Assembly: GCA_041497675.1 (NCBI GenBank) | Contig: JBGQGY010000020.1 | Location: forward strand, 1 to 39,140 | Length of the DNA: 39,140 nucleotides | Reading direction: 5' to 3' | DNA from: a bacterium | GTDB lineage: Bacteria > Sysuimicrobiota > Sysuimicrobiia > Sysuimicrobiales > Humicultoraceae | Part shown: piece after piece, positions 10,777 to 36,808 of the stretch | Layout: each line of letters opens with the position of its first letter | How positions within the stretch are numbered: the stretch's first letter is position 1 | Position numbers and translations under genes: made by a program | The notes under the pieces: model-generated | Seen by the model: only the letters and a program-made list of their open reading frames with translations | Database searches by the model: none | Told to the model about the DNA's origin: nothing

Positions 10777-10813
10777 GGGGTCGAAGAAGGTCCATCAGAC
10801 GGAGGGAATAATA

Positions 10814-12397: not shown

Positions 12398-12435
12398 CGT
12401 GCTCGGCGCCATCGCACACGCCGGCGAACAAATCC

Positions 12436-12469
12436 GAGGCGGGGGGGGACACCGGTCCCGCCCCGCCTC
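12436..12469 (+). terminator. Intergenic GC-rich stem-loop after the SBP gene (mRNA stabiliser or partial terminator)
   Basis: GAGGCGGGGGGGGAC-accg-GTCCCGCCCCGCCTC: 15-bp stem with one mismatch; no U-tract. Confidence 0.55.
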
Positions 12470-12484
12470 ATCCGTGAGGGGACG

Positions 12485-14252: not shown

Positions 14253-14270
14253 CCTGAGGGGGCGAGAACA

Positions 14271-15215
14271 GTGCTCACCGACATCCCAGGTATTCGGGTC
14301 GGCCACGTCACGCATCTCGACAGCGCGACCGGGTGCACCGCCGTTCTCTGCCCTTCCGGGACCCTCGTCGCCGGCGAAACGCGAGGCGGATGGCCGGCGC
14401 TGCGAGAGGAAGGCATGATGAGTCCGTTCCACACCAGCCCGTACGTGGACGCCGTCGTCCTGGCCGGCGGCAGTATCTTCGGGCTGGCGGCGGCCGATGG
14501 CGCGGTCGGCTGGCTCGAAGAGCATAGAGGACGCGATGGGATCAACGACTACGTCCCCCAGGTATGCTCAGCGGTCATCTACGATTTGCGCGTGGGCACT
14601 TCGAAGAAACGCCCACGCGCCGAAGACGGCTACGCGGCCTGCCAGGCGGCCGCACCGGGGCCGTATGCCCTCGGCTCTGTCGGCGCCGGGACGGGCGCGA
14701 CTGTGGGGAAGTGGTATGAGCGCCGCGGCGTGATGAAGGGCGGCGTGGGATCGGCGAGCCTCAAGCCGGCGAGCGGGGTGGTGATTGCCGCGCTCGCGGT
14801 CGTGAACGCCATTGGCGACGTCTATGATCGCGACGGCGCGATCCTCGCCGGCGTACGCAGGCTCGTAGCCGACGCGCCCACGTTTCTCGACCACTCCGTT
14901 CACCTCCTCGAGCATCCCGACGCCGCCAGGATGTCGCGGGGCACAACGCTGGTGGTCGCCGCGACCAACGCTCGGTTGAACAAAGGTGAGCTCGGTATCT
15001 TTGCGAGGATGGCGCAGGCCGGCGTCCCGCGAGCCGTGAATCCCGTCTACATGGCTGGGGACGGCGACACGCTGTTCGCGCTCGCCACGGGAGAGGTGGA
15101 CGCTCCGCTCGCGGTCATTGGCCCGCTGGCCGCCGAGGTGGTTGCGGACAGCATCCGAAGCGGCGTGCGTGAGGCATCCGATCTGGCCGGCTATCGCGCG
15201 CTTCGAGACCTGTGA
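14271..15215 (+). CDS. P1/S58 (DmpA-like) self-processing amidohydrolase
   Basis: LTDIPGIRVGH, TGCTAV, LAGGSIFGL, GSVGAGTGA, KGGVGSAS, VNAIGD, TTLVVAATNA, DGDTLFA. Confidence 0.9.
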   Translation: MLTDIPGIRVGHVTHLDSATGCTAVLCPSGTLVAGETRGGWPALREEGMMSPFHTSPYVDAVVLAGGSIFGLAAADGAVGWLEEHRGRDGINDYVPQVCSAVIYDLRVGTSKKRPRAEDGYAACQAAAPGPYALGSVGAGTGATVGKWYERRGVMKGGVGSASLKPASGVVIAALAVVNAIGDVYDRDGAILAGVRRLVADAPTFLDHSVHLLEHPDAARMSRGTTLVVAATNARLNKGELGIFARMAQAGVPRAVNPVYMAGDGDTLFALATGEVDAPLAVIGPLAAEVVADSIRSGVREASDLAGYRALRDL

Positions 15216-16229: not shown

Positions 16230-19847
<3,618 letters not shown>

Positions 19848-22263: not shown

Positions 22264-23136
22264 CTAGGAGAATCGCGCGGCCGCGGCGTGAAACGCACGG
22301 CGCACGAACACCTTGATCATCTCCCGCTTGTACTCGGCCGACCCATGCAGATCATCGACCGCGTCGGCGGCGTCCCCGGCGATCCGCGCCGCCGCGTCGA
22401 GGTGCGGGCCGATCTCCGACAGCGCCCGGCCTGTCAACATGGCCTCGGCGTCGCCGACCCGGACCGGCGCGGGTCCCACGCAGCCGACGGCCACGCGCAC
22501 GTCCTCGATGCCGCGACGACCGGCATCCAAGGTGAGCGCGAGCGCGACGCCCAGCGTCGGTCGCTCATGAATCCCAAACTTCATGTAGGCGCCGCGCGTG
22601 TGCGGCCCCCACGGACGCACGCGGATGCGCGTCAGCACCTCGTGAGGTCGCCGCGCCGTCTCGAACGCTCCGGAGAAAAACTGACCGATCGGCACCACCC
22701 GTGTCTCTTCATGCGATGCCAGGTCGATCTCGGCATCGAAGGTCAAAAAGAGCGTCCCAGGATCGGCGTGGGGCTCGGCAAAACACAAGTTCCCGCCGAT
22801 GGTCCCGACGCTGCGTACCCTGAGGTTGGCGACACCGCGCTCGACCTCGGCAACGATCGGAACGTGCCGGCGGATGACCGGGTGCCGCTCGAGCGCGTGG
22901 TGCGTGGCGGTGCCGCCGATCGACAGCCACCCTGTGTCTTCGTCATACGTGATCTGGCTCAACCCTGAAATCGTTTTGAGGTCAATCAGATGACGATACG
23001 CCGCCAAACCTTCTTTCATGATCAGCAGCAGTTCAGTCCCGCCGGCATAGAAGGTGGCCGCGTCGCCGTACCGGTCGACGAGCGCGCTCGCCGTCCTGAC
23101 GTCGTCCGGCTGATGAAGCTCAAAGGGTGGGAGCAT
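22264..23136 (-). CDS. CoxM/XDH-family FAD-binding medium subunit
   Basis: MLPPFELHQP, YAGGTELL, LIDLK, GTIGGNLC.AEP.AD, D..GSAEYK. Start set at ATG 23136, overlapping the coxG-like gene. Confidence 0.92.
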   Translation of the reverse strand: MLPPFELHQPDDVRTASALVDRYGDAATFYAGGTELLLIMKEGLAAYRHLIDLKTISGLSQITYDEDTGWLSIGGTATHHALERHPVIRRHVPIVAEVERGVANLRVRSVGTIGGNLCFAEPHADPGTLFLTFDAEIDLASHEETRVVPIGQFFSGAFETARRPHEVLTRIRVRPWGPHTRGAYMKFGIHERPTLGVALALTLDAGRRGIEDVRVAVGCVGPAPVRVGDAEAMLTGRALSEIGPHLDAAARIAGDAADAVDDLHGSAEYKREMIKVFVRRAFHAAAARFS

Positions 23137-23590
23137 CCGCCTGCGGCTGCTCCAGTTCGCGCTTGAGCGACTGCGCGAACGCGGCCATGATCTCTCCCGC
23201 TTTGCGCGCAATCATGCTGTGCCCCAAGACGGCCAGCCGGCCCGTCACGGCCACATTCGAGTGCACGCGCAGCACCGTCTGGTTGCCGGCGGGACTGATG
23301 GCCAGATCGAGCTGCATCTGCAGGCCGCTGCCCATACCGGCGTCGCGCCCGCTCGCCCTGGCGCGCAGCCGGACAGGCGCCGACGCTTCCACGACCTCGA
23401 TGTCGAGCGGAATCTGGACCTTGAACGGCCCAACGCGCTCAACAACCAGCGCCTCATACCGCTGTCCGGCGATGACCGTGCGCGTCGACTGGCAGCCGGG
23501 AATGCAGCGCGCCATCCGCTCAATGTCCCAGAGAAACGCCCACACGTACTCAGGCGATGCCGAGACGGTGATGTCTTGATCAAACTCCAT
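23120..23590 (-). CDS. coxG: CoxG/SRPBCC-domain protein
   Basis: MEFDQDITV...VWAFLWD...ARCIPGC...VGPFK...GRLAVLG. Start at ATG 23590; the track ORF is over-extended. Confidence 0.82.
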   Translation of the reverse strand: MEFDQDITVSASPEYVWAFLWDIERMARCIPGCQSTRTVIAGQRYEALVVERVGPFKVQIPLDIEVVEASAPVRLRARASGRDAGMGSGLQMQLDLAISPAGNQTVLRVHSNVAVTGRLAVLGHSMIARKAGEIMAAFAQSLKRELEQPQADAPTL

Positions 23591-23604: not shown

Positions 23605-25392
23605 CTACCAGGCCATCGCGTAGTTCCGCTCGCCGCGCGAACTCGCTCCCCCTTCGATCACACCCCGCCCGCCGTGGTACGCGACCGCCGTGGTGAAGTT
23701 GAGTGACCATCCGGCGACGGTCCGCACAACGTGGCCGCGGGCCGCCAGATCGTCCCGCACCGCGGCGGGGACGCGCGCTTCGACGACGATCTCCCCGGGG
23801 CTCGGCCGGCGCGGATAGAACGAACTCGGGAAGTGGTTCGTGTGGAACGAAGGGGCATCGATCGCGTCCTGGAGATCCATCCCGAAGTCGATGACGTTCA
23901 GGAAGAATTGCAGCGTCCATTGGTCCTGCTGGTCGCCGCCCGGCGTGCCAAACACCATGTACGGTGCGCCGTCCTTCATCACCAGCGACGGTGTGAGCGT
24001 GGTGCGCGGGCGCTTGCGCGGGCGTAGCGCGGCGGGGTGGTCCGGATCGTCCAGCCGGAACATCTGGCCACGCGTGCTCAGACAGAACCCCAGTCCGGGG
24101 ATGATCGGCGACGAGCGGAACCACGCGCCACTCGGCGTCGCGGAAAACATGTTGCCCTCCTCGTCGACCGCGCGTGTCCCGGTCGTTCCCGTGTCCCAGG
24201 CCCCACCGCTGACTTCCGCGAGATCGGGTTCGCGCGCTTCATCTTGGTACGGATAGGGATTCCCAGGTCGCTGCTCGAGCGAGGCCTTGTCTCGGTCGAT
24301 GAGTCCACGACGCGCCGCCGCATAGGCTTTCGAAAGCAGACCGGCCAGCGGGACGCGGGCAAACTCGGGATCGCCATAGTATCGGTCGCGGTCGGCAAAC
24401 GCGAGCTTGGCAGTCTCCGTGACCACGTGGATATAGTCGGCAGAATTGAGCCCCAAGGCGTTGAGGTCATAGCCTTCCAAGATATTCAACTGCTGCAGGA
24501 ACACCGGCCCCTGCGTCCATGGCCCGCACTTGCAGACATCATATCCCCGGTAATGGACGGAGACCGGAGCTTCGATCTGTGTTTCAAACTCGGCGAAGTC
24601 CTCTTCGGTCAGCAGCCCGGACGACTCGAAGCCATTGGCGTCTCTCACCCGCGTCTCGCGTTGGAACGCCACGATCTCGTGTGTGATATCTCCCTTGTAG
24701 AAGCGGTCGCGGGCGGCGCGCAGAGCCGCGTGTCGGCCGCGCGCCTTCGCGTTGTGCTCGGCCTCGACCAGCCGCTCGAACGTGCGGGCCAGATCGGGAT
24801 TCCGCCAGACGTCTCCCAACGCGGGAACGTCGCCGCCGGGGAGCAGCAGCGCCGCAGACGACGGCCACTCGGCGCGAAACCGGGCCGCGTGGAGTACGAT
24901 CTGGTTGCGCATCGTTTCGTAGATTGGAAACCCGCCGGCAGCCAGCTCAATCGCGGGGCCCAGCACGACCTTGAGGGAGAGACGCCCATAGCGGTCGAGG
25001 GCGGTGATGAGGGCGTCGGCGACCGCGCACACACCCGCCGGCAGGAAGCCGTCGTCGGGGATCAACTCGATCCCACGCTCCCGAAACCACTCGATCGTGG
25101 CGGCCCGCGGCGCCCGCATGTTGCCGTTGATCGCCACGACCCGGCGGTCGCGCGCCGAATAGATGAGGATCGGGACTTCGCCCCCAAACCCGTAACTTTG
25201 GGATTCGAGCACGGCCTGGCAGAAGGCCATCGCCACCCCGGCGTCGATGGCGTTGCCTCCGTGATCACGCATCCGCATGCCGGCAAGGGCCGCCAGATAG
25301 TGCCCGCAGGAGACCACCAGGTGTCGCCCCCGCACGACCGGCCGGGTCGAACTGCCTTCCATCTCGAGCCCGTGCTGCTCTCCCTGCCGCAT
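23605..25392 (-). CDS. ggt: Gamma-glutamyltransferase family Ntn-hydrolase (cytoplasmic)
   Basis: GGNAIDA, GFGGEVP, WTQGP, KLAFADRD.YYGD, processing site G/TTG.RAVD..GN..SATPS, KRPRTTLTP, FGTPGGDQQDQW; SD GGAGG before ATG 25392. Substrate is not determinable. Confidence 0.9.
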   Translation of the reverse strand: MRQGEQHGLEMEGSSTRPVVRGRHLVVSCGHYLAALAGMRMRDHGGNAIDAGVAMAFCQAVLESQSYGFGGEVPILIYSARDRRVVAINGNMRAPRAATIEWFRERGIELIPDDGFLPAGVCAVADALITALDRYGRLSLKVVLGPAIELAAGGFPIYETMRNQIVLHAARFRAEWPSSAALLLPGGDVPALGDVWRNPDLARTFERLVEAEHNAKARGRHAALRAARDRFYKGDITHEIVAFQRETRVRDANGFESSGLLTEEDFAEFETQIEAPVSVHYRGYDVCKCGPWTQGPVFLQQLNILEGYDLNALGLNSADYIHVVTETAKLAFADRDRYYGDPEFARVPLAGLLSKAYAAARRGLIDRDKASLEQRPGNPYPYQDEAREPDLAEVSGGAWDTGTTGTRAVDEEGNMFSATPSGAWFRSSPIIPGLGFCLSTRGQMFRLDDPDHPAALRPRKRPRTTLTPSLVMKDGAPYMVFGTPGGDQQDQWTLQFFLNVIDFGMDLQDAIDAPSFHTNHFPSSFYPRRPSPGEIVVEARVPAAVRDDLAARGHVVRTVAGWSLNFTTAVAYHGGRGVIEGGASSRGERNYAMAW

Positions 25393-25536: not shown

Positions 25537-26358
25537 GTGAATATTGCGCAGCACGTCGAACGGGCGGCGAGATGGCTCCCCGCGCACCCCGCGATCATCT
25601 TCGAGGGCTTCGGTGTGCCCACCGTCTTCATCGCGCTCCTCAATATGGATCTTTCCGGCCACGACCTGTCGTCGATCCGATATGAGTTCTCTGCGGCGGC
25701 CACCATGCCGCAGGAGATCTCGCGTCGCTGGGCGGAGCGGTTCGGGCGCCCAGTCTACGAGGGCTACGGTCTCACCGAGTGCTCGCCGTTCGCCTGTTAC
25801 AATCACGACTTCCGTCACAAGATCGGAAGCATCGGCACCGCCGTCGAGAACACCGAGCTGAGAATCGTCGATCCCGATGACCGGCCCGTGCCTCCAGGCG
25901 AGTGGGGCGAAATCGCCATCCGCGGCCCCGGCGTCATGAAGGGGTATTGGAACAAACCTGACGACACCGCCGAGGCCCTGCGTGGCGGGTGGCTCCATTC
26001 CGGTGACATCGGCACCATGGACGATGAAGGATACATCTTCATCGTGGATCGTTTGAAGGATATGATCAACGTCGCCGGCTTCAAAGTGTGGCCCGCCGAA
26101 GTCGAGCAGGTGTTGTACCGGCATCCGGCGATCCAGGAGATTGCGGTCTACGGCGCGCCCGATCCCCTCAAGGGAGAATCGGTGAGGGCGGCGATTATCC
26201 TCAAACAGGGCGTCAGCGCGACGGCCGACGAGATCCAGGTGTACTGTCGCGAGCGCATGGCCGCCTACAAGGTGCCCGCGGCGATCGACATCGTCCGCGA
26301 GCTGCCGAAGAGCGCTACCGGAAAGATCCTCAAGCGGGTTCTGAGAGCGCAGCCGTGA
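25537..26358 (+). pseudogene. Acyl-CoA synthetase (AMP-binding) with a large in-frame internal deletion
   Basis: 24 N-terminal residues (..PAIIFEG) are joined directly to FGVPT. It retains YEGYGLTE, GEIAIRGP, GWLHSGD, DRLKDMI and PKSATGK but has no YTSGTTGxPKG loop; only 273 aa. Confidence 0.8.
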
Positions 26359-26374: not shown

Positions 26375-27085
26375 TTAGCTTCTGCGGCTGCGCCGCACCA
26401 GGTACGCCCACGCCTGACCGACGAGTTCGGGCGAGTAGCAGTGCCCTCGCTTAGCCAGGGCTTCTTCATCACTCGACCAGGTCTTGAGCTCGCCGGCGGC
26501 CATCGCCAGCAACTGCTTCGCGCAGGCGCGCTCGAGCAGGATCGCCCCTAGCACCGCCGTTTCGATATCCTCCCCCGCCGTCACAATGCCGTGGTGGATC
26601 ATCAGCGCCGCGTTACGCTGTCCCACCGCTGCCGCCAGCGCCTGACCGAGCGGTTGCGTCAGGATGAGATCACCGGTCTGCGTGAAGCGCGCGATGTCGG
26701 GGGGAACGAAGAACGTCCCTTCGTGTGAGATCGGACGGAGCGGCTGATCGAGCGCCGCGAATGCGACGGCGTGCGGCGCGTGCGTGTGGACGACGGACAC
26801 GACGTCCGGCCGCGCCTGCATGATCTCGGTGTGAATCGGGTACTCCGCGTGACGCCTGCCGTCGCCGGCGAGGACCTGTCCGTCCCACCCCACGAGGAGC
26901 ACTCGCTCCGGTGTGATCTCCTCGAACCCCCACGTGGAGGCCTTCATCCAGACGCCGCGTCCCTGCGGGTCGCGCAGGGATACGTGCCCCCATATCATGT
27001 CGCCGTGGTCCTCGTGGGCGAGTACCTGCGATGCGGTCGCTACCAACTCGCGGATATCGTCAGCCACTTCTTCCCGTGGGTTCAT
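26375..27085 (-). CDS. Class II aldolase/adducin family protein
   Basis: WGHVSLR, E..IH.EI...RPDV.SVVHTH, ALM.HHG (Zn-binding His set). Start is ATG 27085 or GTG 27067. Confidence 0.9.
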   Translation of the reverse strand: MNPREEVADDIRELVATASQVLAHEDHGDMIWGHVSLRDPQGRGVWMKASTWGFEEITPERVLLVGWDGQVLAGDGRRHAEYPIHTEIMQARPDVVSVVHTHAPHAVAFAALDQPLRPISHEGTFFVPPDIARFTQTGDLILTQPLGQALAAAVGQRNAALMIHHGIVTAGEDIETAVLGAILLERACAKQLLAMAAGELKTWSSDEEALAKRGHCYSPELVGQAWAYLVRRSRRS

Positions 27086-28283
27086 CGGCGTGTGCGGGGC
27101 GCCGATAGAACGCGTCCTCCATGCGGCTGTCACCGCCTTCCGCACGCAATGCCGGCTCCCACTCCTTTCGGATGTGCGGATCCTCGTCCCAGTAGGGAAC
27201 GGCGTTCCCGCCTTCCTCCAGGTGCATCGCGTTCTTGTCCAACACCTGCTCGCCCGGCCGGCCGGGTTCGCGGCCGGTCCCCCGCCCAAAGGGACCAAAC
27301 CACGCCATCAGGCGAAGCGGTCCCTGGCTGACCCCAAAGTGCTGGTGGAACCATTGACCACCCATCGGTGCCGCGCTCACCATCCCCACAGGTTCGTAGT
27401 CCTGGCGCACGATACGCTCGGCCTGTCCCGTCGCCCAGGGCCGGGGACCCACCTCGCGCGGCCACGCATACGTGTAGCCCTTGCCCCTGATACAGATCAA
27501 CACCGCCGCGGACCCATGCGCATGCGCCTTCGAATACCGACCGCTCTCGTGCTGGCCGATCCACAGATAGAAGACATTCTTGTCGAGCCCCGGTTCCAGC
27601 CGTCGAAAGCCCGGTGAGCGGCGGTTGTCCAGGGGCAGCGGACAGTTGACCGCATCGGGGACGATGTTCGTGCGCACCATCGCGAGGCCGCGGTGCGGGT
27701 CGGGTTCGATATCCTGAAGATTGGCCTTGAAGTAGCCTTCACGGCCATCATAGCGATCGCGAAACGCGTATGGACAGTTGAAGACGAAGTCTGCGGTGCC
27801 AAAGAGATTCATCACCGCCGGAGCCGTCGTGCCGACGAGCAGCAGCGCGGGCCCGGATGACATCGAGTTGATCAGCCTGTGATGCGTGTTGATCGGGATC
27901 GTAAACAACGATCCGGGCTGCCACTCAAACACGTCGCGGCCGTCACCGTCCTCCGACCAGACCTCCGCGGCGCCTCGCCCCTCGACGACAAAGATGACCT
28001 CTTCGTACAAGTGACGCTCGGGATTCAGCGCGTGCGCGGGAGGAATCTCGACGACATAGCCCCCCCAGATGCCTTCGGTTCCGTACAGCTGGATGAACGT
28101 CCCCCGGCCGCCCAGCCGCCGCCACGCGCCCATGGGGAGATCTTGCACCCTGCGCACCCCGACGCCCCGATAAACCGGAATTCCCTCCGACTCCATAAAC
28201 ACGTCGTAGGGCGCGGGTGGGCGCTTCCACTTGCCGTATCCGGCGCGATCGTACCCGGACGGCTCACGCCACTGTTTGGCCAT
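27060..28283 (-). CDS. Bicupin protein (gentisate dioxygenase-like architecture), paralogue B
   Basis: Domain 1 ERHLYEE...IPINTHH; domain 2 KAHAH...WFHQHF; SD GGAGG before ATG 28283. Confidence 0.85.
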   Translation of the reverse strand: MAKQWREPSGYDRAGYGKWKRPPAPYDVFMESEGIPVYRGVGVRRVQDLPMGAWRRLGGRGTFIQLYGTEGIWGGYVVEIPPAHALNPERHLYEEVIFVVEGRGAAEVWSEDGDGRDVFEWQPGSLFTIPINTHHRLINSMSSGPALLLVGTTAPAVMNLFGTADFVFNCPYAFRDRYDGREGYFKANLQDIEPDPHRGLAMVRTNIVPDAVNCPLPLDNRRSPGFRRLEPGLDKNVFYLWIGQHESGRYSKAHAHGSAAVLICIRGKGYTYAWPREVGPRPWATGQAERIVRQDYEPVGMVSAAPMGGQWFHQHFGVSQGPLRLMAWFGPFGRGTGREPGRPGEQVLDKNAMHLEEGGNAVPYWDEDPHIRKEWEPALRAEGGDSRMEDAFYRRPAHADEPTGRSG

Positions 28284-28362
28284 CAGAACCTCCAGAGAAC
28301 CCCGTCGGCGATTGGGGTGTGCAGCAATCTGACGAACAACAGATCGACCTGCATGCCGCATC

Positions 28363-29181
28363 TCACCTCCGTCGCGCGCTCGTAGGATCGTACGCCGTCA
28401 CGTGCGGGCCATCGATCGAGATCTTCCCCGCCGAGTAGCCGCCGTCGACGTATATCGCCTGCCCGGTCAGGAACCGCGCCCGCTCGGAGGCGACAAAGAG
28501 CACCATATCGGCGATCTCCTGCGGGTCGGCGAGCCGGCCCAGCGGCACCTCGCGGACGAATCGTTCCGTGTACTCTGCTGTCGGATAGGACTTCGAGAGC
28601 TTGCGGACGTCCGTCAACCCTGGCGCCACGACATTGACCGTGATTTTGTGTGGCCCCAGTTCGAGCGCCAGCACCTTGGTCAACTGGACGACGGCCGCCT
28701 TCGAAGCGCAATGGGGTGCCGCGCGTACCCGGGCGACCGCTCCGGCAGTGGAGCCGAAGTTGATGATGCGCCCGCCGCGGCCCTGCGCGATCATCTGCCG
28801 GCCAGCGGCGCGGCACGTCAGAAAGACCGCCCGGAATTGCGTGTCGACCTGGAAGTCCCACTCGTCGTCGGTCATCTCGACGACGGTTTTGTGCACGCCC
28901 ACACCGGCGCAATTCACCAGGATATCCAAACCGCCGTAGGCCGCAACCGTCTGCTCAACCAACCGGTTGACCGATGCGCTGTCGGTGACGTCAGTACGGA
29001 TGAACATCGCCTCGCCACCCTCGCTTCGCAACTGCGTGGCGACCTGCTCACCCCACTCCTGGTTGATATCCGCAATCACGCTGCGCGCCCCCGCACGCAC
29101 GAACGACATGAGCGTCACCCGGCAGATTCCCGACGAGGCGCCGGTGACGATCGCGATCTTGCCGTCGAACTCTCCGCTCAT
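28363..29181 (-). CDS. SDR family oxidoreductase, atypical (HxxxK)
   Basis: TGASSGIC, TDV, VNCAG, INFGS, HCASK, VAPG, PLGRL, TGQ.IYVDGG. Confidence 0.9.
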   Translation of the reverse strand: MSGEFDGKIAIVTGASSGICRVTLMSFVRAGARSVIADINQEWGEQVATQLRSEGGEAMFIRTDVTDSASVNRLVEQTVAAYGGLDILVNCAGVGVHKTVVEMTDDEWDFQVDTQFRAVFLTCRAAGRQMIAQGRGGRIINFGSTAGAVARVRAAPHCASKAAVVQLTKVLALELGPHKITVNVVAPGLTDVRKLSKSYPTAEYTERFVREVPLGRLADPQEIADMVLFVASERARFLTGQAIYVDGGYSAGKISIDGPHVTAYDPTSARRR

Positions 29182-29253: not shown

Positions 29254-30063
29254 CTACACCGCAGGCCGGAAGACCGAGGTTTCACCCGTGACCCCCAACT
29301 TCCCCGCGCCGTACCCGCCGTCCACGTAGACGACCTGGCCGGTGACGTACCGCGCGCGATCCGAAGCGAAGAACAGCACAGCGTGGACCATCTCCTCGTA
29401 GCGCCCGAGGCGTCCCATCGGGACCTCCCGCAGGAAGTTGCGCGTGTATTCCTCCGACGTCGGGCCCTTCCGTGAGGGACCCTCGACGTCGGTCAGTCCA
29501 GGCGCCATCACATTCGCCGTGATATGATGCTTGGCTAGCTCCATCGCGAGCACGCGTGTCAGCATCACGACGCCCATCTTGGACACGGTGTGCGCGGCCG
29601 ACCCTACCCGCGGGACCAACCCGCCGGTGGACCCGATGTTGATGAGGCGGCCGCCGCGCCCCTGCCGTATCATGCGGCGCGCGCCCTCACGGCAGATCAG
29701 AAAGGCGCCCTTCAGCACCACGTCGAGCTTCTCGACCCACTCGTCCTCAGAAGTCTCTGCCACCTCGTTCTTCACCCGGATGTCGGCGCCGTGGATGACG
29801 ATATCGACCCCGCCAAAAGCGGTCTCTGCCTGGTCGAACAACCGAGTCACCTGTGCGGCGTCGGCGACGTTGGTTCGGACAAACCGCACTTGGTGTCCGG
29901 ACGTCTGCAGGTCGCGGACCGCAGCCGCCCCATACTCATCGTCCACGTCGGCAATGACGCCGCGGGCTCCTCGTTCGACGAACGCGGTCAGGATCGCACG
30001 GCAGATCCCAGACGCGCCGCCGGTGACAATCACAACCTTACCATCGTACTCGTGATCTCGCAT
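29254..30063 (-). CDS. SDR family oxidoreductase, atypical (HxxxK)
   Basis: TGGASGIC, IHGAD, INIGS, HTVSK, MAPGLTD, PMGRL, TGQVVYVDGG; SD AGGAG. Confidence 0.9.
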   Translation of the reverse strand: MRDHEYDGKVVIVTGGASGICRAILTAFVERGARGVIADVDDEYGAAAVRDLQTSGHQVRFVRTNVADAAQVTRLFDQAETAFGGVDIVIHGADIRVKNEVAETSEDEWVEKLDVVLKGAFLICREGARRMIRQGRGGRLINIGSTGGLVPRVGSAAHTVSKMGVVMLTRVLAMELAKHHITANVMAPGLTDVEGPSRKGPTSEEYTRNFLREVPMGRLGRYEEMVHAVLFFASDRARYVTGQVVYVDGGYGAGKLGVTGETSVFRPAV

Positions 30064-30077
30064 CGCATCACTCCTTG

Positions 30078-30923
30078 TCAGGTGTCTCTGAGTCGAGGGT
30101 CTAGCAGGTCCCGCAGGAAGTCACCGACGACGTTGACCGACAGCACCGTGAGAAAGATTGCCGCACCCGGCAGCGTGGAAACCCACCACGATGTCATGAT
30201 CCAGTTGCGGCCATCTGCCACCATACCGCCCCAGGTGGCCGTTGGCGGTTGGACGCCCAACCCCAGATACGAGAGTGAGGCCTCAGCAATGATAAGCCGC
30301 GCAATCTCTAGGGTCGAGATCACGAGCAACGATGACAACACGTTCGGCAGGATGTGACGGAACATGATGCGCGCGCTGCTGCTACCCAACGCCCTCGTAG
30401 CCTCGACGTACTCATTCACTTTGATCGCGAGGACCTCGCTGCGGATCACCCGCCCGTAGATCACCCAGCCGCTGATGCCCAGCACGAAGATCACATTGCG
30501 CAGCCCTGCGCCGAGGACTGCCATCACCGCAATGGCCAAAACCAGGAAGGGGACCGCGAGTTGGATGTCGGCGATTCGCATGAAGAGCGCGTCCAACCGC
30601 CCGCCGTAGTACCCGGACGCCAACCCAAGCACGCATCCCACGCCGGCCTGAACGGTGACGGCAGCGAAGCCGACAATCATCGAGATGCGCGCCCCGTAGA
30701 TGATCCGGCTCAGCATGTCGCGCCCGAGCGCGTCTGTGCCCAGGAGGTAGTCGGGCATCCCGCCCGCCTGCCACGATGGAGGCAGTAGACGGGCCGTCAG
30801 GTCTTGCTCATCCGGGTCGCGCGGCGCGAGGCGCGGCGCGAGCACCGCGCACAGGAGAACTGCGAGTAGCACGCCGGCAGCGAATGGCACCGTCCACTTG
30901 CGACGCGCTGCTCGGACGATCAT
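30078..30923 (-). CDS. Peptide ABC transporter permease (DppC/OppC-like)
   Basis: LGTDALGRD, YVEATRALG, HILPN, EASLSYLGLGVQPP, GDFLRDLLDP. Confidence 0.93.
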   Translation of the reverse strand: MIVRAARRKWTVPFAAGVLLAVLLCAVLAPRLAPRDPDEQDLTARLLPPSWQAGGMPDYLLGTDALGRDMLSRIIYGARISMIVGFAAVTVQAGVGCVLGLASGYYGGRLDALFMRIADIQLAVPFLVLAIAVMAVLGAGLRNVIFVLGISGWVIYGRVIRSEVLAIKVNEYVEATRALGSSSARIMFRHILPNVLSSLLVISTLEIARLIIAEASLSYLGLGVQPPTATWGGMVADGRNWIMTSWWVSTLPGAAIFLTVLSVNVVGDFLRDLLDPRLRDT

Positions 30924-30938
30924 GCGCGGGGACCCCGG

Positions 30939-31862
30939 TTAGCCCGCGTAGCGCACGCGTGGATCGAGGTAGACATACAGCAGATCCACGATCAGGTTGA
31001 CGGCCAGCACGACGATCGCCGCGACGATCACAAACGCCTGGACCACCGGCATGTCACGGTTGCGAATCGCCTGGATGGCCAGCAAGCCCATCCCCGGGTA
31101 CGCAAAGACTGTCTCGGTGATGATGGCACCGCTGAGCAACTGCCCCATTTGTAGGCCGATGACCGTCACGACGGGCAAGGCGGCGTTCTTGAGGCTGTGC
31201 CGGCGGATGACGACCGTCTCCGACAACCCCTTGGCGCGCGCTGTGCGGATGTAGTCGCGGCCGAGCACCTCGATGAGACTTGATCGGAGTAATCGCGCTG
31301 TGATCGATCCTGAGTAGGCCCCGAGGGTAAGCGACGGAAGGATCAGCCGCTCGACCCCGCCCCGGCCGGACGCCGGTAGCCACTGGAGCCAGACCGAGAC
31401 CGTGAGGATCAGTACAATCCCCAGCCAGAACACCGGCATGCTGTTCCCGGCGACGGCCGCGGCGGTCACAAGAGCGTCCTGCGCGCTGCCCCGCTTTACG
31501 GCGGCGATGATGCCAACCGGCACCCCGATTGCCAGAGAGACGAAGAGCGCAGCAAAAGCGAGTTCGAGGGTGGCCGGCACCCGTTCGAGTACCAGGGCCG
31601 CGGCCGGCTGCTGGTGGCGGAAGGAGAAGCCCAGATCGCCGCGTACGGCACGGCCTAGATAGCGTAGGTACTGTTCGTACACTGGGCGGTCGAAACCCAT
31701 CGACCTGCGGAACGCTTCGATCTCTTCCTTGCTGATATCGTCGGCGGGTAGTAGCAGCGCGACCGGGTCACCCGCCAAGAACATCAGGCCGAACACAATC
31801 ACCGACACGCCCAGAATGACCAGAACCGAGTGGAGCAGCCGCTGGAAGAGATACCGACCCAC
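30939..31862 (-). CDS. Peptide ABC transporter permease (DppB/OppB-like)
   Basis: GDP, GDLGFS, PVFWLG, DYIRTARAKGL, TETVF, DPRVRY. GTG 31862 is chosen because the track start runs through the intergenic hairpin. Confidence 0.92.
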   Translation of the reverse strand: MGRYLFQRLLHSVLVILGVSVIVFGLMFLAGDPVALLLPADDISKEEIEAFRRSMGFDRPVYEQYLRYLGRAVRGDLGFSFRHQQPAAALVLERVPATLELAFAALFVSLAIGVPVGIIAAVKRGSAQDALVTAAAVAGNSMPVFWLGIVLILTVSVWLQWLPASGRGGVERLILPSLTLGAYSGSITARLLRSSLIEVLGRDYIRTARAKGLSETVVIRRHSLKNAALPVVTVIGLQMGQLLSGAIITETVFAYPGMGLLAIQAIRNRDMPVVQAFVIVAAIVVLAVNLIVDLLYVYLDPRVRYAG

Positions 31863-31921
31863 GGGCGCGCTAGACCCGTCGCCCGTTCGCTGCCCGGCCG
31901 CACAGGTCGCCAAAAGCGACA

Positions 31922-31954
31922 AGAGGCCAGGGTCCGGTCAAGACCCTGGCCCCC
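31922..31954 (-). terminator. Intergenic stem-loop after the SBP gene (mRNA stabiliser or partial terminator)
   Basis: Minus strand AGGGGCCAGGGTC-ttgaccg-GACCCTGGCCTCT: 13-bp stem with one G-U pair. Confidence 0.55.
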
Positions 31955-31991
31955 TGCGCGTCACGAACACCTCAGGCGCCCGGCGGTCGCC

Positions 31992-33539
31992 TCACTTGAC
32001 GATCGTACCGGCGCTGAAGAGATCGACTAGTTCGTCCGGTCGCGCCACGAAATTCACACCATCGCGAACTGCGTAGATCTCGACCAGATGGTGGAGGAAC
32101 AGTACCGGCGCTTCTTCCCGGATCATTGCAGCGGCCCGGTACAGCGACTCCTGCCGGACCTTCGAATCGAGACTGGACCGAGCCCGATCGACCGCGCGGT
32201 CGATCTCGGGGCGGGACCAGTACGGACCGACCCCCCACGGCTGGTTCGTGACGAAGAGACTGTGGTAGATGCCGGCGGCGTCGTATGGCCCCGCGAAGGC
32301 GAACAGGTTCAAGGAGTTGAGCTTCTTCTCGAGCTGTGCCTTTGCGTACACGCCCCATTCGAACGGCGTCACTCGTGCCTGCACGCCGACCCGCGCCAGC
32401 TGCGCTGAGATCACTTGTGCGATTTCCTTGTCGAGCGTGTACCGACCCGCCGGCGTCCACAGATCGATCGTGAACCCGTTCGGGTACCCGGCCTCAGCGA
32501 TCAGTTGCTTGGCCTTCTCTTGATCAAACGGGTACGGCTTCATGTCCGGGTTGTAACCAAAGAACACCGGTCCCACGACCTGGGACTTTGCCACTACACC
32601 GAAACCGCGAAGCAAGTTCTTGACGATGCTCTCCTTGTTCACGGCGTAGTTGAGGGCCTGCCGGACCCGCTTGTCATCCAGCGGCGGCCGATCCGGCCGC
32701 ATGATGAGGAACATCGTGCGCAGCGTGGGCGTTGTGACGATCCGGATGCCCTTGTCGCGTCCGATGGCCTCGGCCTGATCGGGCACCACCGCCGGGATCA
32801 GATCCACCTCGCCGGTCCGCAACAGCGCCACGCGCGTTGCATACTCGGGAATGGGGCGGAAGGTGACCCGTTTGACTTTTGGCGCCCCTCCCCAATAGTT
32901 CGGGTTGGCCTCCGCCACGATCCGGCCGTCCTTGACCCATTCCTTGAAGACAAACGGCCCGGTGCCGTTTGGTTTCAGGGCGAACTGCGCCTCGCCCACC
33001 TGTTTGAAGTACTGCGGCGGGATGATCGCCTGCCGGAACAGCGTGGCCGATGCCAGTGTCGGATCCGGCGCTTTCGTGATGAAGTGCACCGTGAGCGGGT
33101 CGATGACCTTGACTTCCTGGATGGTGGAGATCTGCCCGCGGCCGGGAATCTTGTTCGCGGGGTCGAGGACGCGGTCGTACGTGAACTTCACCGCGTCAGC
33201 AGTCAGCGGCTCGCCGTTATGGAACTTGACGCCCCGGCGGAGCTTGACCTCCCACGTGGTCTCGTTGACGTTCCGCCATGACTCGGCCAGCCGCGGGGCG
33301 AGTTTCCCGTCCACAGTCCGCCACAGGAGGTAGTCATAAAAGTAGTTCGCAATGACCGTGTCGTTCGTCACGGTGGGCCGCGCGGGGTCCAGCGTCGTCG
33401 CGTCCGTCGTCAGGGCGACCGTCACTTCGGTCTTCATGGCCATGGGCGCCGCCCATGAGAGGTCCTGGGGCCCACCAACAAGCGATGGTATCAGAAGCGC
33501 CGCCACTGCGATGACCACCGTCAGCCGTACTCTAATCAT
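31992..33539 (-). CDS. Peptide/nickel ABC transporter substrate-binding protein (SBP family 5)
   Basis: Signal peptide; PRLAESW, LRRGVKFHNGEP, PNGTGPF, RVRQALNYA; SD GGAGG. Confidence 0.93.
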   Translation of the reverse strand: MIRVRLTVVIAVAALLIPSLVGGPQDLSWAAPMAMKTEVTVALTTDATTLDPARPTVTNDTVIANYFYDYLLWRTVDGKLAPRLAESWRNVNETTWEVKLRRGVKFHNGEPLTADAVKFTYDRVLDPANKIPGRGQISTIQEVKVIDPLTVHFITKAPDPTLASATLFRQAIIPPQYFKQVGEAQFALKPNGTGPFVFKEWVKDGRIVAEANPNYWGGAPKVKRVTFRPIPEYATRVALLRTGEVDLIPAVVPDQAEAIGRDKGIRIVTTPTLRTMFLIMRPDRPPLDDKRVRQALNYAVNKESIVKNLLRGFGVVAKSQVVGPVFFGYNPDMKPYPFDQEKAKQLIAEAGYPNGFTIDLWTPAGRYTLDKEIAQVISAQLARVGVQARVTPFEWGVYAKAQLEKKLNSLNLFAFAGPYDAAGIYHSLFVTNQPWGVGPYWSRPEIDRAVDRARSSLDSKVRQESLYRAAAMIREEAPVLFLHHLVEIYAVRDGVNFVARPDELVDLFSAGTIVK

Positions 33540-33542
33540 CCC

Positions 33543-33785
33543 TCACCTCCTCGTAGTCTTACCGCGGGTTCTACGCGGTCGAGCCCGACGCACGGAGCGT
33601 CTATCGGAGTGCAGAACGCCGGCAAAGGCGATCTCGTGGGATGCTCCGTGGGTGTAGAGGTAGATCGTCACATCGTCCGGGAGCTTGTCGACCGACTGGC
33701 ACACAGCCTCGGTCAGGCGCTGCACCAATGTACGCCGTCGAGCTCGGGTCGGCTTGCCGGTCACGTGCACGTGCAGTGTCGGCAC
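33543..33785 (-). CDS. Tautomerase superfamily (4-OT-like) small protein with Pro-1
   Basis: SD GGAGG then GTG-CCG gives (M)PTLHVHVTGKPTRARRRTLVQRLTEAVCQSVDKLPDDVTIYL...IAFAG; beta-alpha-beta pattern; 80 aa. Confidence 0.75.
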   Translation of the reverse strand: MPTLHVHVTGKPTRARRRTLVQRLTEAVCQSVDKLPDDVTIYLYTHGASHEIAFAGVLHSDRRSVRRARPRRTRGKTTRR

Positions 33786-33801
33786 GGATGCCTCCGGGTC
33801 G

Positions 33802-34032
33802 CTATCTGCGGCTCGGCTCCGGACGGAGCCGGTCAGAGAGGAGCCTGCCGCCGCGGGCCATGTTCTCATAGGAGAGGATGCGGAACCTGACGCTGACGGC
33901 CTCCGGATCGGCTCCGAGCACCTGAACACAGGCTTCGGTGAGCAGGCGTGCCAGCCTGCGCTTCTGGTCGACAGTTCGTTTGTCGTTAATCTCTACGTAC
34001 AGGGTCACGACCGGGTAGCTGGACACCGACAC
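33802..34032 (-). CDS. Tautomerase superfamily (4-OT-like) small protein with N-terminal extension before the Pro
   Basis: SD AGAGGAG 8 nt before GTG 34032 gives MSVSSYPVVTLYVEINDKRTVDQKRRLARLLTEACVQVLGADPEAVSV...ENMARGG; RTxDQK and N...GG signatures; 76 aa. Confidence 0.8.
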   Translation of the reverse strand: MSVSSYPVVTLYVEINDKRTVDQKRRLARLLTEACVQVLGADPEAVSVRFRILSYENMARGGRLLSDRLRPEPSRR

Positions 34033-34170
34033 CGGACAAACTCCTCTCGTGACTGGTGGGGACGTGCCAGATCGCTCCATCCAGCTTCTACGACGCGTTT
34101 GGCACTCCTCTCGGGGTCGCGGGCCACCTAGCCGGCTGGGCGGCTCCTGCCGTGCCGCGGATCATCGATG

Positions 34171-34176
34171 TATACT
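34171..34176 (+). promoter_or_regulatory. Putative sigma70-type -10 element for the cupin-eutA-like unit
   Basis: TATACT in the divergent intergenic gap, 30 nt upstream of ATG 34207; -35 is weak. Confidence 0.45.
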
Positions 34177-34206
34177 CTGACGGTAGAACACAGCAGGGAG
34201 GCGGCG

Positions 34207-35313
34207 ATGCAGAAAGAGACCCTCTCGCTCCCTGAACACTGGGGGAGCACCGGCTACAAGGCGTTCCTCGAACGCGAGCACCTCCCGGTGGTCGGCGGCC
34301 TCGCCGTGGACGACCTGGCCACGGTCGACGTCGTGCCGTGGTCCCGACTCGACGCCCGCGGTGTCTACATCCAGCTGATCGGCGCAGAAGACACCGACAA
34401 CGCCTACGTCCTCGAGATCCCCGCCGCCGGCTCGACTGCGCCCGAGCGTCACTTGTTCGAAGAAGTCTTCTTTGTCATCGCCGGGCGCGGGTCGTGCGAG
34501 GTCTGGAACCAGGCCGGCGCCAAACGGGTCTTCGAGTGGCAGCGTGGCAGCCTCTTTGCCGTACCGCTCAACACCTTTCACCGGATGCACAACGGCTCGG
34601 GGCAGGAGCCTGCGCGGCTCCTGGCCGTGACGACGGCCCCGCTGATGATCAGCCTCCTGCGCAATCTCGATTTCGTCTTCGACTGCCCCTTCGACTTCAC
34701 CGACCGTTTCAGCGGCCAGGAAGATTTCTTCAACGGCGAGGGCCCGCTCTACGTGCGGCCACAGAGCACACAGCGCATCTGGGAAACAAACTTCGTCGCC
34801 GACGTCTACAAGCTCGCGCTCCACGAGTGGAAGGAACGAGGCGCCGGCGGCAAGCACATTAAGTTCGAGCTGGCGAACAACACGCTCGTGGCACACAGTT
34901 CGGAGTTCCCGATCGGCACCTACAAGAAGGCGCACCGCCACGGGCCGGGCGCCCACGTGATCATCCTGCACGGGCAGGGTCACACGCTGATGTGGACCGA
35001 CCAGCATGAGACCTTCGACGAGGTCCCCTGGAGACCGGGCACGATGCTTGTGCCGCCCGGGATGTGGTGGCATCAACACTTCAACACCGGCCCGACGCCG
35101 GCGCGCTACCTCGCCATCCGCTGGGGCAGCACCAAGTGGAAGCTCACCCGCTACCTTGACCACCAGGGTGTCGACAAGAGCGCGAAGGCGGGCGGCCACC
35201 AGATCGAGTATGCCGACCAAGACCCCCGGATCCACCGCATCTTCGTCGAGCACTGCCGCGCGAACGGGGTCGAGGTCAAGATGGACGAGTTCTTCGCCCG
35301 GACCGCGACATAG
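34207..35313 (+). CDS. Bicupin protein (gentisate dioxygenase-like architecture), paralogue A
   Basis: Domain 1 ERHLFEE...VPLNTFH; domain 2 KAHRHGPG...WWHQHFN; SD GGGAGG before ATG 34207. Confidence 0.87.
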   Translation: MQKETLSLPEHWGSTGYKAFLEREHLPVVGGLAVDDLATVDVVPWSRLDARGVYIQLIGAEDTDNAYVLEIPAAGSTAPERHLFEEVFFVIAGRGSCEVWNQAGAKRVFEWQRGSLFAVPLNTFHRMHNGSGQEPARLLAVTTAPLMISLLRNLDFVFDCPFDFTDRFSGQEDFFNGEGPLYVRPQSTQRIWETNFVADVYKLALHEWKERGAGGKHIKFELANNTLVAHSSEFPIGTYKKAHRHGPGAHVIILHGQGHTLMWTDQHETFDEVPWRPGTMLVPPGMWWHQHFNTGPTPARYLAIRWGSTKWKLTRYLDHQGVDKSAKAGGHQIEYADQDPRIHRIFVEHCRANGVEVKMDEFFARTAT

Positions 35314-35317
35314 CCTG

Positions 35318-36808
35318 ATGCACGAGTTCGACGAAGACCACATCCACCTCGAGGGCGAGGACAGCGCGGCCGTCTACGTCGGCGATCGCGTCAAGCTGCT
35401 GAGCGTGGGCGTCGACATCGGGACGTCGACCTCGCACATGATCTTCTCCCGGCTCTTCCTCGAGCGGCAGGGGCAGCGGCTCTCCAGCCGGTTCATCGTC
35501 ACGCAGCGCGAGATTCTCTTCCGCTCGCCCGTGATCTTCACGCCGTACACGTCCGCGGGATTGATCGACGCCTCGACGCTGGCCAAGTTTATCAACGCCT
35601 CGTACAACGACGCGGGCGCGCTGCGCGAACACATCGACGCCGGCGCGGTGATCACTACCGGCGAGGCGGCGCTGCGGGAGAATGCGCGGGCCGTGGGCGA
35701 CTTGTTCTCGCAAGAGGTCGGCAAGTTCGTGTGCGCCACCGCGGGGCCCAATCTCGAGAGTCTCCTGGCCGCGCATGGCTCCGGTGCGGTCGAGCTGTCG
35801 CGCGACGGTGAAGAGCCCCTGCTCAACATCGACATCGGCGGCGGGACGACCAAGTTTGCGATCTGCCGCGCCGGTAAGGTCGAGCAGACGGGAGCGATCC
35901 ATCTCGGCGCCCGGCTGATCGCGTGGGATTCGAGCGGAAGACTCAACCGCGTCGAAGAGGCGGGCCGGCGTCTGGCGGCCGCCGCCGGCGTTCGCGGCGG
36001 CCCGACCGGCGTCCTGACTACAGGCGAGCGTGTGCCTTCTGAAGACCTCGACCGCCTCGCCGCGCACATGGCCGAGACCGTGATTCAGATCGCCGGGGGG
36101 ACGCGCGACAGCGATCTTTGGATCACCCCGCCGCTATCCCCGGCGCCGCCCTTTCGCCGCATCGTCATCTCGGGAGGCGTCGCCGAGTACGTGTACGACC
36201 GCGAGAAACAGGATTTTGGCGACCTCGGCCCCCGCCTCGCCGCGGCGCTGCGGCGGCGCGCCACCGAACTCGGTGTCGACCTGCTGGAACCGCGCGAGGC
36301 GATCCGCGCCACCTGTATCGGTGCGTCGCAATACACCGTGCAGTTGAGCGGCGACACGATCTTCCTGTCGGACCCGGAGGTCCTGCCGCTGCGCAGCGTG
36401 CCGGCGGTCAGGCTCAACGCGACTCCATCCGCCCCCGCGGTCGCCCAGGCCGTGCGGCAGGGCATGGCGCGGCTCGACCTCAACGGCGGCGACGACGGCG
36501 CCGAGGGCCGGTTTGCGCTGGCGGTCCACTGGCATCACGGAGCCGACTACGCGTCTCTGCGAGAGCTGTGCGCGGGGATCGTCGCGGCGCTACCCGGGGT
36601 CGGTCACGGTCACCCGTTGCTCGTCGTCATCGACGCCGACGTCGCCGGGCTGGTCGGCGCCCTCTTGCAGCAAGAGTTCGGCGTCAAAGGCGACATCGTG
36701 TGCATCGACCAGGTGCTCCTGCGGGAGTTCGATTACATCGACATCGGCAAACCGCTGCCGGACCAGGGCGTGGTCCCGGTGGTCGTCAAGAGTCTCGTCT
36801 TCCGCTGA
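35318..36808 (+). CDS. eutA: EutA-family (ethanolamine ammonia-lyase reactivase-like) ASKHA ATPase, with no eutBC in the window
   Basis: LSVGVDIGTSTS, SP.IFTP, GAVITTGEA..RENA, ATAGP.LES, NIDIGGGT, SGGVA, IRAT.IGA....LSG.TI, CID...DYIDIG.P, VPVVVKSL.F all match EutA consensus as I recall it. ATG 35318 is 4 nt after the cupin stop. Symbol denotes family only. Confidence 0.88.
   Translation: MHEFDEDHIHLEGEDSAAVYVGDRVKLLSVGVDIGTSTSHMIFSRLFLERQGQRLSSRFIVTQREILFRSPVIFTPYTSAGLIDASTLAKFINASYNDAGALREHIDAGAVITTGEAALRENARAVGDLFSQEVGKFVCATAGPNLESLLAAHGSGAVELSRDGEEPLLNIDIGGGTTKFAICRAGKVEQTGAIHLGARLIAWDSSGRLNRVEEAGRRLAAAAGVRGGPTGVLTTGERVPSEDLDRLAAHMAETVIQIAGGTRDSDLWITPPLSPAPPFRRIVISGGVAEYVYDREKQDFGDLGPRLAAALRRRATELGVDLLEPREAIRATCIGASQYTVQLSGDTIFLSDPEVLPLRSVPAVRLNATPSAPAVAQAVRQGMARLDLNGGDDGAEGRFALAVHWHHGADYASLRELCAGIVAALPGVGHGHPLLVVIDADVAGLVGALLQQEFGVKGDIVCIDQVLLREFDYIDIGKPLPDQGVVPVVVKSLVFR

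Follow-up and report, generated by a model that had tools for sequence, protein, structure and literature searches.

A EutA-like ATPase gene paired with a bicupin gene in Sysuimicrobiota: a conserved, co-diversifying unit without a link to ethanolamine

Background

EutA removes damaged cofactor from the ethanolamine ammonia-lyase EutBC in a step that requires ATP (according to the available part of PMC5821096). The present work deals with a EutA-like gene that directly follows a bicupin gene in a bacterium of the Sysuimicrobiota (Humicultoraceae). The stretch analysed, hereafter the window, is the entire contig JBGQGY010000020.1 of assembly GCA_041497675.1 (39,140 nucleotides); the source genome is 98.62% complete and consists of 272 contigs. 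The pair is composed of the following genes, given with their positions in the window:

34168-35313, + strand: bicupin A open reading frame (ORF), 381 codons, TAG stop at 35311-35313
35318..36808, + strand: EutA-like ATPase, 496 amino acids, ATG at 35318, member of a non-canonical, cupin-linked clade

The two genes form a conserved, co-inherited and co-diversifying pair that shows no link to ethanolamine. Like EutA, the ATPase matches PF06277 over its full length, is 37% identical to the Escherichia coli protein, has 57 conserved positions in common with canonical EutA and is encoded beside its presumed client. It differs from EutA in that eutBC is missing from the window's genome and phylum, and in that the protein stays under four NCBIfam cut-offs, lies outside the eutB-linked clade, carries an N-terminal tail and 11 clade-specific residues, and has a bicupin as neighbour.

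The diol dehydratase reactivases DdrAB and PduGH resemble the window protein in that an ASKHA-type ATPase repairs a cofactor enzyme; DdrA (2d0o) ranks 46th among its structural matches (Z 11.2, root-mean-square deviation (rmsd) 5.5, 255 aligned residues), with nothing specific beyond the common fold. In HypA, Ni(II) is bound by the first three residues, MHE, with the N-terminal amine and an essential His2 as ligands (available part of PMC7055735). The window ATPase likewise has MHE at its start, with HxH and acidic residues behind it, in a tail predicted to be disordered, which recalls HypA as well as the His-rich UreE and HypB; unlike HypA, it has an ASKHA fold and the corresponding nucleotide chemistry, and its sequence holds no CxxC. 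This likeness to HypA is a motif-level resemblance, made of a three-residue motif and of composition, and not homology.

Gentisate and salicylate 1,2-dioxygenases are ring-cleaving bicupins with an Fe(II) held by three histidines. Bicupin A is similar to them in having two barrels in one chain, in its best fold match and in a conserved His cluster in one barrel, and families of aromatic catabolism neighbour the pair in other genomes; it differs in that its sequence similarity to them is marginal and its His-rich site is in the C-terminal barrel. We know of no bicupin of this dioxygenase class that needs an ATPase partner. In activators of the BcrAD/BadFG type, each monomer contributes two conserved cysteines to a bridging [4Fe-4S] cluster, unlike the ATPase clade of the window, which has one nearly invariant cysteine (C183).

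Public pipelines name these proteins EutA, and hundreds of database clusters are called 'ethanolamine ammonia-lyase reactivating factor EutA'. No publication on a EutA-like/bicupin pairing was found in literature searches whose coverage stops at subscription-only papers. Papers found for EutA and cupin concern, in their available parts, the eut microcompartment, ectoine genes and other topics rather than the pairing; searches for metallochaperone with cupin and ASKHA, and for EutA with SAR202, retrieved nothing, and PF06277, COG4819 and IPR009377 led to Listeria only.

Conservation of the bicupin/ATPase pair

Bicupin A most likely starts at the ATG at 34207, where its homologues begin in the alignment, which gives a protein of 368 amino acids (34207-35313); the residue numbers of bicupin A used below run from 34168. 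Four nucleotides separate its stop from the ATG of the ATPase gene. The initial annotation had described a full-length EutA-family gene 4 nucleotides behind a bicupin gene, with both ASKHA phosphate loops, and the coordinates, the PF06277 match and the motifs DIGTSTS and DIGGGT all agree with that description.

Conservation was examined in the best 80 of 346 relatives, on contigs from one genome per species; 71 of these loci had at least 1300 bases upstream of the ATPase gene and were considered testable. In 43 of the 71, the gene immediately preceding the ATPase gene on its strand is a bicupin homologue; these loci come from metagenome-assembled genomes labelled Sysuimicrobiota or Armatimonadota and from Chloroflexota, Alpha- and Betaproteobacteria, Binatia, Acidobacteria (Solibacteraceae) and Myxococcota. 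A possible ATPase start lies within -20 to +30 nucleotides of the bicupin stop in 26 of 41 pairs, an estimate that takes the nearest start codon and is thus biased to short gaps. Neighbouring genes vary widely and include Tct or ABC transporters, UbiD, amidase, Rieske, Amidohydro_2 and FAA hydrolase families; since these surroundings differ between loci while the pair stays, the pair travels as a self-contained unit.

Presence of the two families was then compared over whole genomes. In the window's phylum (94 genomes, related ones not being independent and the trait being patchy across genera; the unpublished genomes G017 and G024 are included), a strong PF06277 match was obtained in 35 genomes, all 35 of which also carry the bicupin family, and 55 genomes have neither. 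The bicupin occurs without the ATPase in the remaining 4, three of which are 59, 69 and 83% complete; in the 83%- and 94%-complete genomes of this group the bicupin A match looks truncated, perhaps by a contig end. In an even sample of 251 Alphaproteobacteria, the ATPase was found in 4 genomes, in each of which one or more of the ATPase copies adjoin a bicupin, and 246 had neither gene. Among 300 Gammaproteobacteria the family is present in 3, including a genome with a canonical EutA (G292) and a Limnohabitans (G094) with three ATPase copies, two of them behind bicupins.

Two bicupin types could be distinguished. The A type has the motifs HRHxxGxH and HQH, and the B type is without the third His. 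Bicupin A and a second bicupin of the window, bicupin B, are paralogues (about 35-38% identical), B being the second-best match of A in the genome; outside the window's phylum, it is mostly B-type bicupins that precede the ATPase gene. On a 54-row tree in which 48 ATPases carried the label of their upstream partner, A or B, the label switched a single time, and the B side has a support of 99. The two bicupin-linked copies of Limnohabitans G094, one in an A-type and one in a B-type pair, group by partner type and not by genome. Cultured carriers include Sinorhizobium terangae, with a B-type pair (pCB3126_1), and Phyllobacterium zundukense. On a plasmid of the latter (NZ_CP104971.1, genes at 469795-472597), the gene annotated as EutA comes after one for a 409-amino-acid 'hypothetical protein' that has 45% identity to bicupin A; the cluster further contains TctC, TctCAB and a LysR regulator, as well as genes for a thiamine pyrophosphate enzyme, an oxidoreductase and a class II aldolase-family protein.

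The ratio of bicupins to ATPases is 2:1 in the window's genome and 15-35 to 4-5 in four Dehalococcoidia genomes (G399-G402), several of whose EutA-like paralogues lie directly downstream of a bicupin (for example on G399:C1). These four genomes, of 2.4-3.2 Mb, hold 34, 28, 35 and 15 bicupin matches, respectively, with 4-5 EutA-like paralogues each.

Phylogenetic position of the ATPase

The canonical set was composed of seven EutAs encoded next to eutB, from E. coli K-12, Clostridioides difficile, Listeria monocytogenes, Cetobacterium somerae, two haloarchaea and the gammaproteobacterium G292. In a FastTree phylogeny of 234 rows, these seven and two representatives without context are on one side of a branch with an SH-like support of 96. 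The other side (225 rows, the window protein included) holds all 47 cupin-linked proteins together with 28 no-cupin, 5 short-flank and 1 unclassified protein and 144 representatives. With IQ-TREE (64 rows, short search, SH-aLRT), support was 98 for the six canonical proteins without G292, 92 when the two representatives were added and 87 for the non-canonical side; G292 is a very long branch, the placement of which is unsure. On the 54-row tree the canonical group is supported at 100. All these trees are unrooted, so that they display the separation and not the ancestral form.

The cupin-linked ATPases are thus a clade apart from the eutB-linked EutAs. A EutA tree annotated with neighbouring genes, and the persistence of the cupin adjacency, were the checks proposed at the outset for a new system: on the tree, the window protein and all cupin-linked proteins fall outside the eutB-linked group, and the adjacency proved to be conserved, with 43 of 71 loci, full co-occurrence in two lineages and co-diversification with the bicupin type.

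Absence of ethanolamine lyase and microcompartment genes

None of the 36 ORFs of the window that were scanned with Pfam belongs to the EutB, EutC, bacterial microcompartment (BMC) or cobalamin families, in agreement with the initial annotation, which had seen no eutB, eutC, microcompartment or cobalamin gene in the 39 kb. The genome-wide search that it called for likewise returned no match to EutB, EutC or the BMC shell domain, at the completeness of 98.62%; the genome is therefore not one that has eutBC and lacks another eutA. The EutA-like gene of the window is the only PF06277 gene of the genome. EutB was found in 0 of the 94 genomes of the phylum and is lacking in 4 of 5 other cupin-linked genomes, the fifth carrying it on a different contig. 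No EutBC was seen in the annotated neighbour clusters of the 80 related loci; the annotation covered clusters that occur in at least 2 of these loci, and only a part of the ORFs. Adenosylcobalamin-type enzymes do occur in the genome, on contigs other than the window: it encodes two MM_CoA_mutase-family genes (mutase types on C21 and C4) and two B12-binding domains.

Sequence and fold of the EutA-like ATPase

The Pfam EutA profile (PF06277) matches the protein end to end, from residue 26 to 495 and over profile positions 2-474 of 475 (409 bits, E 3.7e-122), so that the full EutA architecture, C-terminal domain included, is retained. The NCBIfam EutA equivalogs NF007991-NF007994 give 323, 293, 238 and 224 bits against cut-offs of 598, 769, 799 and 952, none of which is reached. 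E. coli EutA (b2451) is 37% identical over 478 residues (219 bits). Among 1.84 billion cluster representatives searched, 781 proteins match the ATPase at E 1e-30, and the best 150 representatives all score at least 292 bits against it, above E. coli EutA. Further PF06277 hits in the control genomes of Bacillus subtilis, Caulobacter, Thermus and Deinococcus were discarded as weak ASKHA cross-hits and not orphan EutAs: at E 1e-20 or stricter they disappear and E. coli alone stays.

The nucleotide-binding motifs, the invariance of which was judged in an alignment of 51 sequences, are as follows:

35414..35434, + strand: ASKHA phosphate-1 loop DIGTSTS, residues 33-39; D33 and G35 invariant, also in canonical EutA
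35831..35848, + strand: ASKHA phosphate-2 loop DIGGGT, residues 172-177; D172, G174-176 and T177 invariant
36170..36190, + strand: adenosine-binding motif SGGVAEY, residues 285-291; S285, G286 and G287 invariant, also in canonical EutA

All nucleotide motifs are among the 57 conserved positions common to the window clade and canonical EutA. The 11 clade-specific positions comprise, for example, H40/Q, K179/N, C183/F and G444/K (clade/canonical); K179, just past the phosphate-2 loop, is present in 76 of 76 non-canonical rows, and all 7 canonical rows have N. Two cysteines had been singled out in the initial annotation, in FVCATAG and RATCIG. Both are present and neither is conserved (consensus KFVAVSAG and IRATVIG); the nearly invariant cysteine of the alignment is C183. 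An iron-sulfur activase was rejected on these grounds, the FVCATAG and RATCIG cysteines being unconserved and C183 being the single nearly invariant one.

The structural model of the ATPase has a predicted local distance difference test (pLDDT) score of 87.9, with residues 1-16 below 50. Two RNase-H-like subdomains and the phosphate-1, phosphate-2 and adenosine motifs are all present in the model, which is consistent with ASKHA membership. Its matches are those of a generic ASKHA fold: Ppx/GppA (3cer, Z 16.4, rmsd 4.1, 256 aligned), PilM, BcrAD-type activators, FtsA/MreB, kinases and EutJ. Searches of the PDB by sequence and profile found no relative of the ATPase and no EutA structure.

One cluster representative of 892 amino acids (P0268) has a EutA-like domain (21-469) joined to a major facilitator superfamily (MFS) transporter domain (484-869), either as a genuine fusion or because two gene calls were merged; the no-cupin Dehalococcoidia group likewise has MFS genes at its flanks. 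No EutA-like/cupin fusion was found in the 5 long representatives scanned.

Structure and putative metal site of the bicupins

Bicupin A contains two Cupin_2 stretches according to Pfam, and its model folds as a bicupin (pLDDT 86.8). The best structural matches are gentisate 1,2-dioxygenase 3bu7 (Z 21.4, rmsd 3.1, 257 aligned) and salicylate 1,2-dioxygenase 2phd (Z 21.2); other bicupins, such as oxalate decarboxylase and seed globulins, reach about Z 19, some 2 Z units lower, and the order given by Foldseek is different. At the sequence level bicupin A is far from these enzymes: it scores 20.5 bits against a cut-off of 442 for gentisate_1_2 (TIGR02272) and 37.4 against 650 for 5-aminosalicylate dioxygenase, and its profile matches 3bu7 at a marginal E of 0.0018. 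The sequence and profile search of the PDB yielded marginal cupin hits only and no close solved relative, and the Atlas clusters that resemble bicupin A are all unnamed cupin proteins.

Conservation in 36 bicupin sequences points to the following motifs:

34933..34956, + strand: C-terminal cupin motif 1 HRHGPGAH, with H256, H258 and H263; H256 and H258 nearly invariant
35071..35079, + strand: C-terminal cupin motif 2 HQH, with H302 and H304, both invariant
34450..34464, + strand: N-terminal cupin motif HLFEE; H95 invariant, E98 and E99 nearly invariant

The His cluster H256, H258, H302 and H304 of the C-terminal barrel, with H263 in addition in the A type, is a putative metal site.

N-terminal tails of the ATPases and the metal question

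The ATPase begins with a segment that precedes the EutA profile match:

35318..35380, + strand: N-terminal tail MHEFDEDHIHLEGED..., residues 1-21, predicted to be disordered and a candidate metal-binding peptide

The acidic and His-containing tail MHEFDEDHIHLEGED pointed out in the initial annotation is therefore present, and it belongs to a conserved subfamily motif that is absent from canonical EutA. In canonical EutAs only 0-3 residues precede the first strand, and none of the 7 has a tail; the tails of non-canonical ATPases measure about 15-60 residues. The motif of the A-type subclade, M-H-[D/E]...[D/E]-H-x-H, is found in the window, its close relatives, Phyllobacterium, the Limnohabitans A pair and many representatives. 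Tails that begin with xH[D/E] were counted in 15 of 129 family representatives, and at least 3 His are present in the tail of 51 of these 129 and in 15 of 43 cupin-linked loci, some tails being long HG/HD repeats; poly-His/Asp/Gly tails are carried by many members of the family. The conservation of a His- and acid-rich tail that canonical EutA lacks favours a role in metal handling.

In two no-cupin loci from Alphaproteobacteria (L047 and L049), genes for a P-type (E1-E2) ATPase, a response regulator and a cation-efflux protein (CDF) are found no more than a few kb from the EutA-like gene; such a metal-homeostasis neighbourhood was seen in two or three related loci only. On the P. zundukense plasmid (locus L089), a 'YjbE family putative metal transport protein' is encoded at 7502-8143, two genes downstream of the EutA-like gene, as a single observation.

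Other genes of the window

A catabolic operon is transcribed divergently from the pair:

26375..27057 (start approximate), - strand: class II aldolase/adducin-family gene (PF00596, 136 bits), directly after bicupin B
27060..28361, - strand: bicupin B, 433 amino acids, Pfam Cupin_2, inside the divergent catabolic operon
28363-29181 and 29254-30063, - strand: two short-chain dehydrogenase genes (Pfam adh_short, adh_short_C2)
30078..33539, - strand: family-5 solute-binding protein and two permeases (SBP_bac_5, BPD_transp_1), divergent from the bicupin A/ATPase pair

The aldolase-family gene scores under every NCBIfam cut-off; it also adjoins bicupin B in related loci and is present in the Phyllobacterium cluster too. 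In close relatives, a TctABC transporter takes the place of the family-5 solute-binding protein and permeases. The divergent transporter operon and the pair are separated by a spacer of 667 bp (33540-34206), which contains no ORF with a Pfam match. A riboswitch or other RNA upstream of the pair was considered and dropped: at Rfam gathering scores no RNA was detected in the spacer or in the whole window, nor at E up to 1 in 33300-34400.

By Pfam, the 36 ORFs of the window encode peptide-type ABC transporters, peptidases, dehydrogenases, a Mo-hydroxylase, PFOR and others. Three paralogous sets of a family-5 solute-binding protein and two permeases are located within 6052-15215 (+) and 30078-33539 (-), with no ABC ATPase gene adjoining any of them; two of the sets are followed by peptidases, M20 at 9511-10776 and S58 at 14271-15215. 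A xanthine-dehydrogenase/CO-dehydrogenase-type enzyme is represented by a molybdopterin-binding large subunit (2793-5093, -) and a FAD-binding subunit (22264-23211, -) that are 17 kb apart, and between them lie a PFOR gene (16230-19847) and two dihydroorotate-dehydrogenase-family genes. Between a gamma-glutamyltranspeptidase gene (about 23605-25266, -) and the aldolase-family gene, the C-terminal piece of an AMP-binding (acyl-CoA synthetase-type) protein was recognised at 25609-26358 (+), covering profile positions 261-384 and AMP-binding_C. It looks like a truncated remnant, the N-terminal half of which would overlap the gamma-glutamyltranspeptidase gene.

Discussion

The ATPases of this clade have conserved ATP motifs and a conserved tail, and their bicupin partners conserve metal ligands. 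The proposal made from the DNA alone, that a EutA-like ATPase has been repurposed toward a cupin partner, came through the three comparisons on which it could have failed: the protein does not nest among canonical EutAs, the genome carries no eutBC, and the adjacency to the cupin is conserved. What the ATPase does for the bicupin is a matter of graded probability, and we give an even chance to an ATP-driven activase, reactivase or metal-centre chaperone. We infer physical binding between the two proteins, the handling of a metal and the direction of the effect, as well as the choice of a chaperone or activase over a kinase or ligase.

On this activase or chaperone reading, bicupin A and the ATPase would be one two-gene functional unit, unconnected with ethanolamine or B12. 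The bicupin would be a catalytic metalloenzyme with a His-rich metal site in its C-terminal barrel, and would probably take part in degrading an organic acid or aromatic compound that the cell imports. The ATPase would combine the ATP-binding core of EutA with a flexible N-terminal peptide, here MHE...HxH, and may act on the bicupin as EutA does on ethanolamine ammonia-lyase: ATP would open the enzyme, and the active-site metal (Ni, Fe or other) would be loaded, exchanged or restored. Such a role is suggested because EutA, the sole characterised relative, uses ATP to strip damaged cofactor from a neighbouring enzyme, because the nucleotide site is intact, because the clade has gained flexible and often His-rich tails, because the pair is constant amid varying pathway genes, and because bicupins outnumber ATPases, which fits a helper better than an obligate subunit. 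More specifically, and with a probability that we put somewhat below even, the non-canonical half of the EutA family may be a new class of ATP-driven, actin-fold metal-centre chaperones or reactivases, in which a flexible metal-binding tail, of the MHE/HxH or poly-His kind in one branch, serves to load or repair the active-site metal of a large and entirely uncharacterised family of gentisate-dioxygenase-like bicupins.

Several observations weigh against the activase or chaperone reading. No same-strand bicupin is directly upstream in 28 of the 71 testable loci, and 27 have none in the fetched locus. These loci belong mainly to one monophyletic Dehalococcoidia group, with aldo-keto reductase, histidine phosphatase and amidase genes after the ATPase; others are a few Alphaproteobacteria in which the ATPase gene is behind TctABC. 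On the trees both groups nest within cupin-linked clades, and the Dehalococcoidia genomes without adjacency hold many bicupins elsewhere. One of the 251 alphaproteobacterial genomes has a bicupin and no ATPase; behind this bicupin lies an unrelated ORF in convergent orientation. Not all tails are rich in His: those of the B-type ATPases read GGRIFFS..R or GF..RH and have no more than 1-2 His. Among the 33 and 74 annotated neighbour-cluster representatives, no gene for nickel/cobalt transport or regulation was found, and the generic ASKHA fold matches of the ATPase include small-molecule kinases.

An obligate two-component enzyme, in which bicupin and ATPase are subunits of one ATP-dependent catalyst and ATP hydrolysis is tied to each turnover (for example by substrate phosphorylation in the complex), is the strongest of the alternatives and is in our view unlikely. 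There is a model for it in the hydantoinase-type ATPases that drive acetone or acetophenone carboxylases, and it would account for the tight, often overlapping or nearly overlapping junctions (the 26 of 41 pairs of the short-gap-biased estimate), the strict co-occurrence of ATPase and bicupin, the co-diversification with partner type and the several dedicated pairs within one genome. However, bicupins far outnumber ATPases in several genomes, bicupin B of the window has no ATPase of its own type, and a monophyletic ATPase group has lost the adjacency. The closest characterised relative is moreover a repair factor and not a catalytic subunit, and His-rich tails are typical of metal delivery.

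Quite improbable is a pathway kinase or ligase, by which the ATPase would phosphorylate or activate a metabolite for further conversion by the bicupin, acting as an isomerase or oxygenase, and by the class II aldolase-family enzyme. The aldolase-family gene of the window and Phyllobacterium clusters is in line with this, as class II aldolases often act on phosphorylated substrates, and so are the histidine phosphatase behind the ATPase in the Dehalococcoidia group and the ROK, pantothenate and sugar kinases among the fold matches. Yet, outside the window's phylum, the aldolase gene is found with the pair only in Phyllobacterium and one Rubrivivax locus, and the other pathway genes vary between phyla around a constant bicupin. 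The full EutA architecture has been kept down to the C-terminal domain, and a disordered, conserved N-terminal peptide would not be expected of a kinase.

A reactivase acting in trans on another adenosylcobalamin enzyme, such as the methylmalonyl-CoA-mutase types on C21 and C4, is very improbable, in spite of the two mutase-family genes and two B12-binding domains elsewhere in the genome and of the homology of the ATPase to a B12-enzyme reactivase, since neither the window nor the annotated neighbour clusters of the 80 loci contain a B12 enzyme, the ATPase tracks the bicupin and not a B12 enzyme, and such mutases are normally served by G-protein chaperones.

Conclusions

For a large share of the family the EutA label is misleading, as this clade is never beside the lyase in the loci examined. 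The pairing suggests that cupin enzymes may have an ATP-driven helper of a kind not described so far. If the ATPase does service the metal site of a cupin, the 'reactivase' principle would extend from B12 enzymes to simple metal-centre enzymes, and an actin-fold ATPase would join the known types of metallochaperone, which are mostly GTPases. The bicupin partner family has no solved or characterised member, and the presence of the pair in cultured Phyllobacterium and Sinorhizobium makes its chemistry testable. The family is highly expanded in some Dehalococcoidia; if the chaperone reading is true, this expansion, of 15-35 copies per genome in some marine-type Dehalococcoidia, may matter for the breakdown of recalcitrant organic matter.

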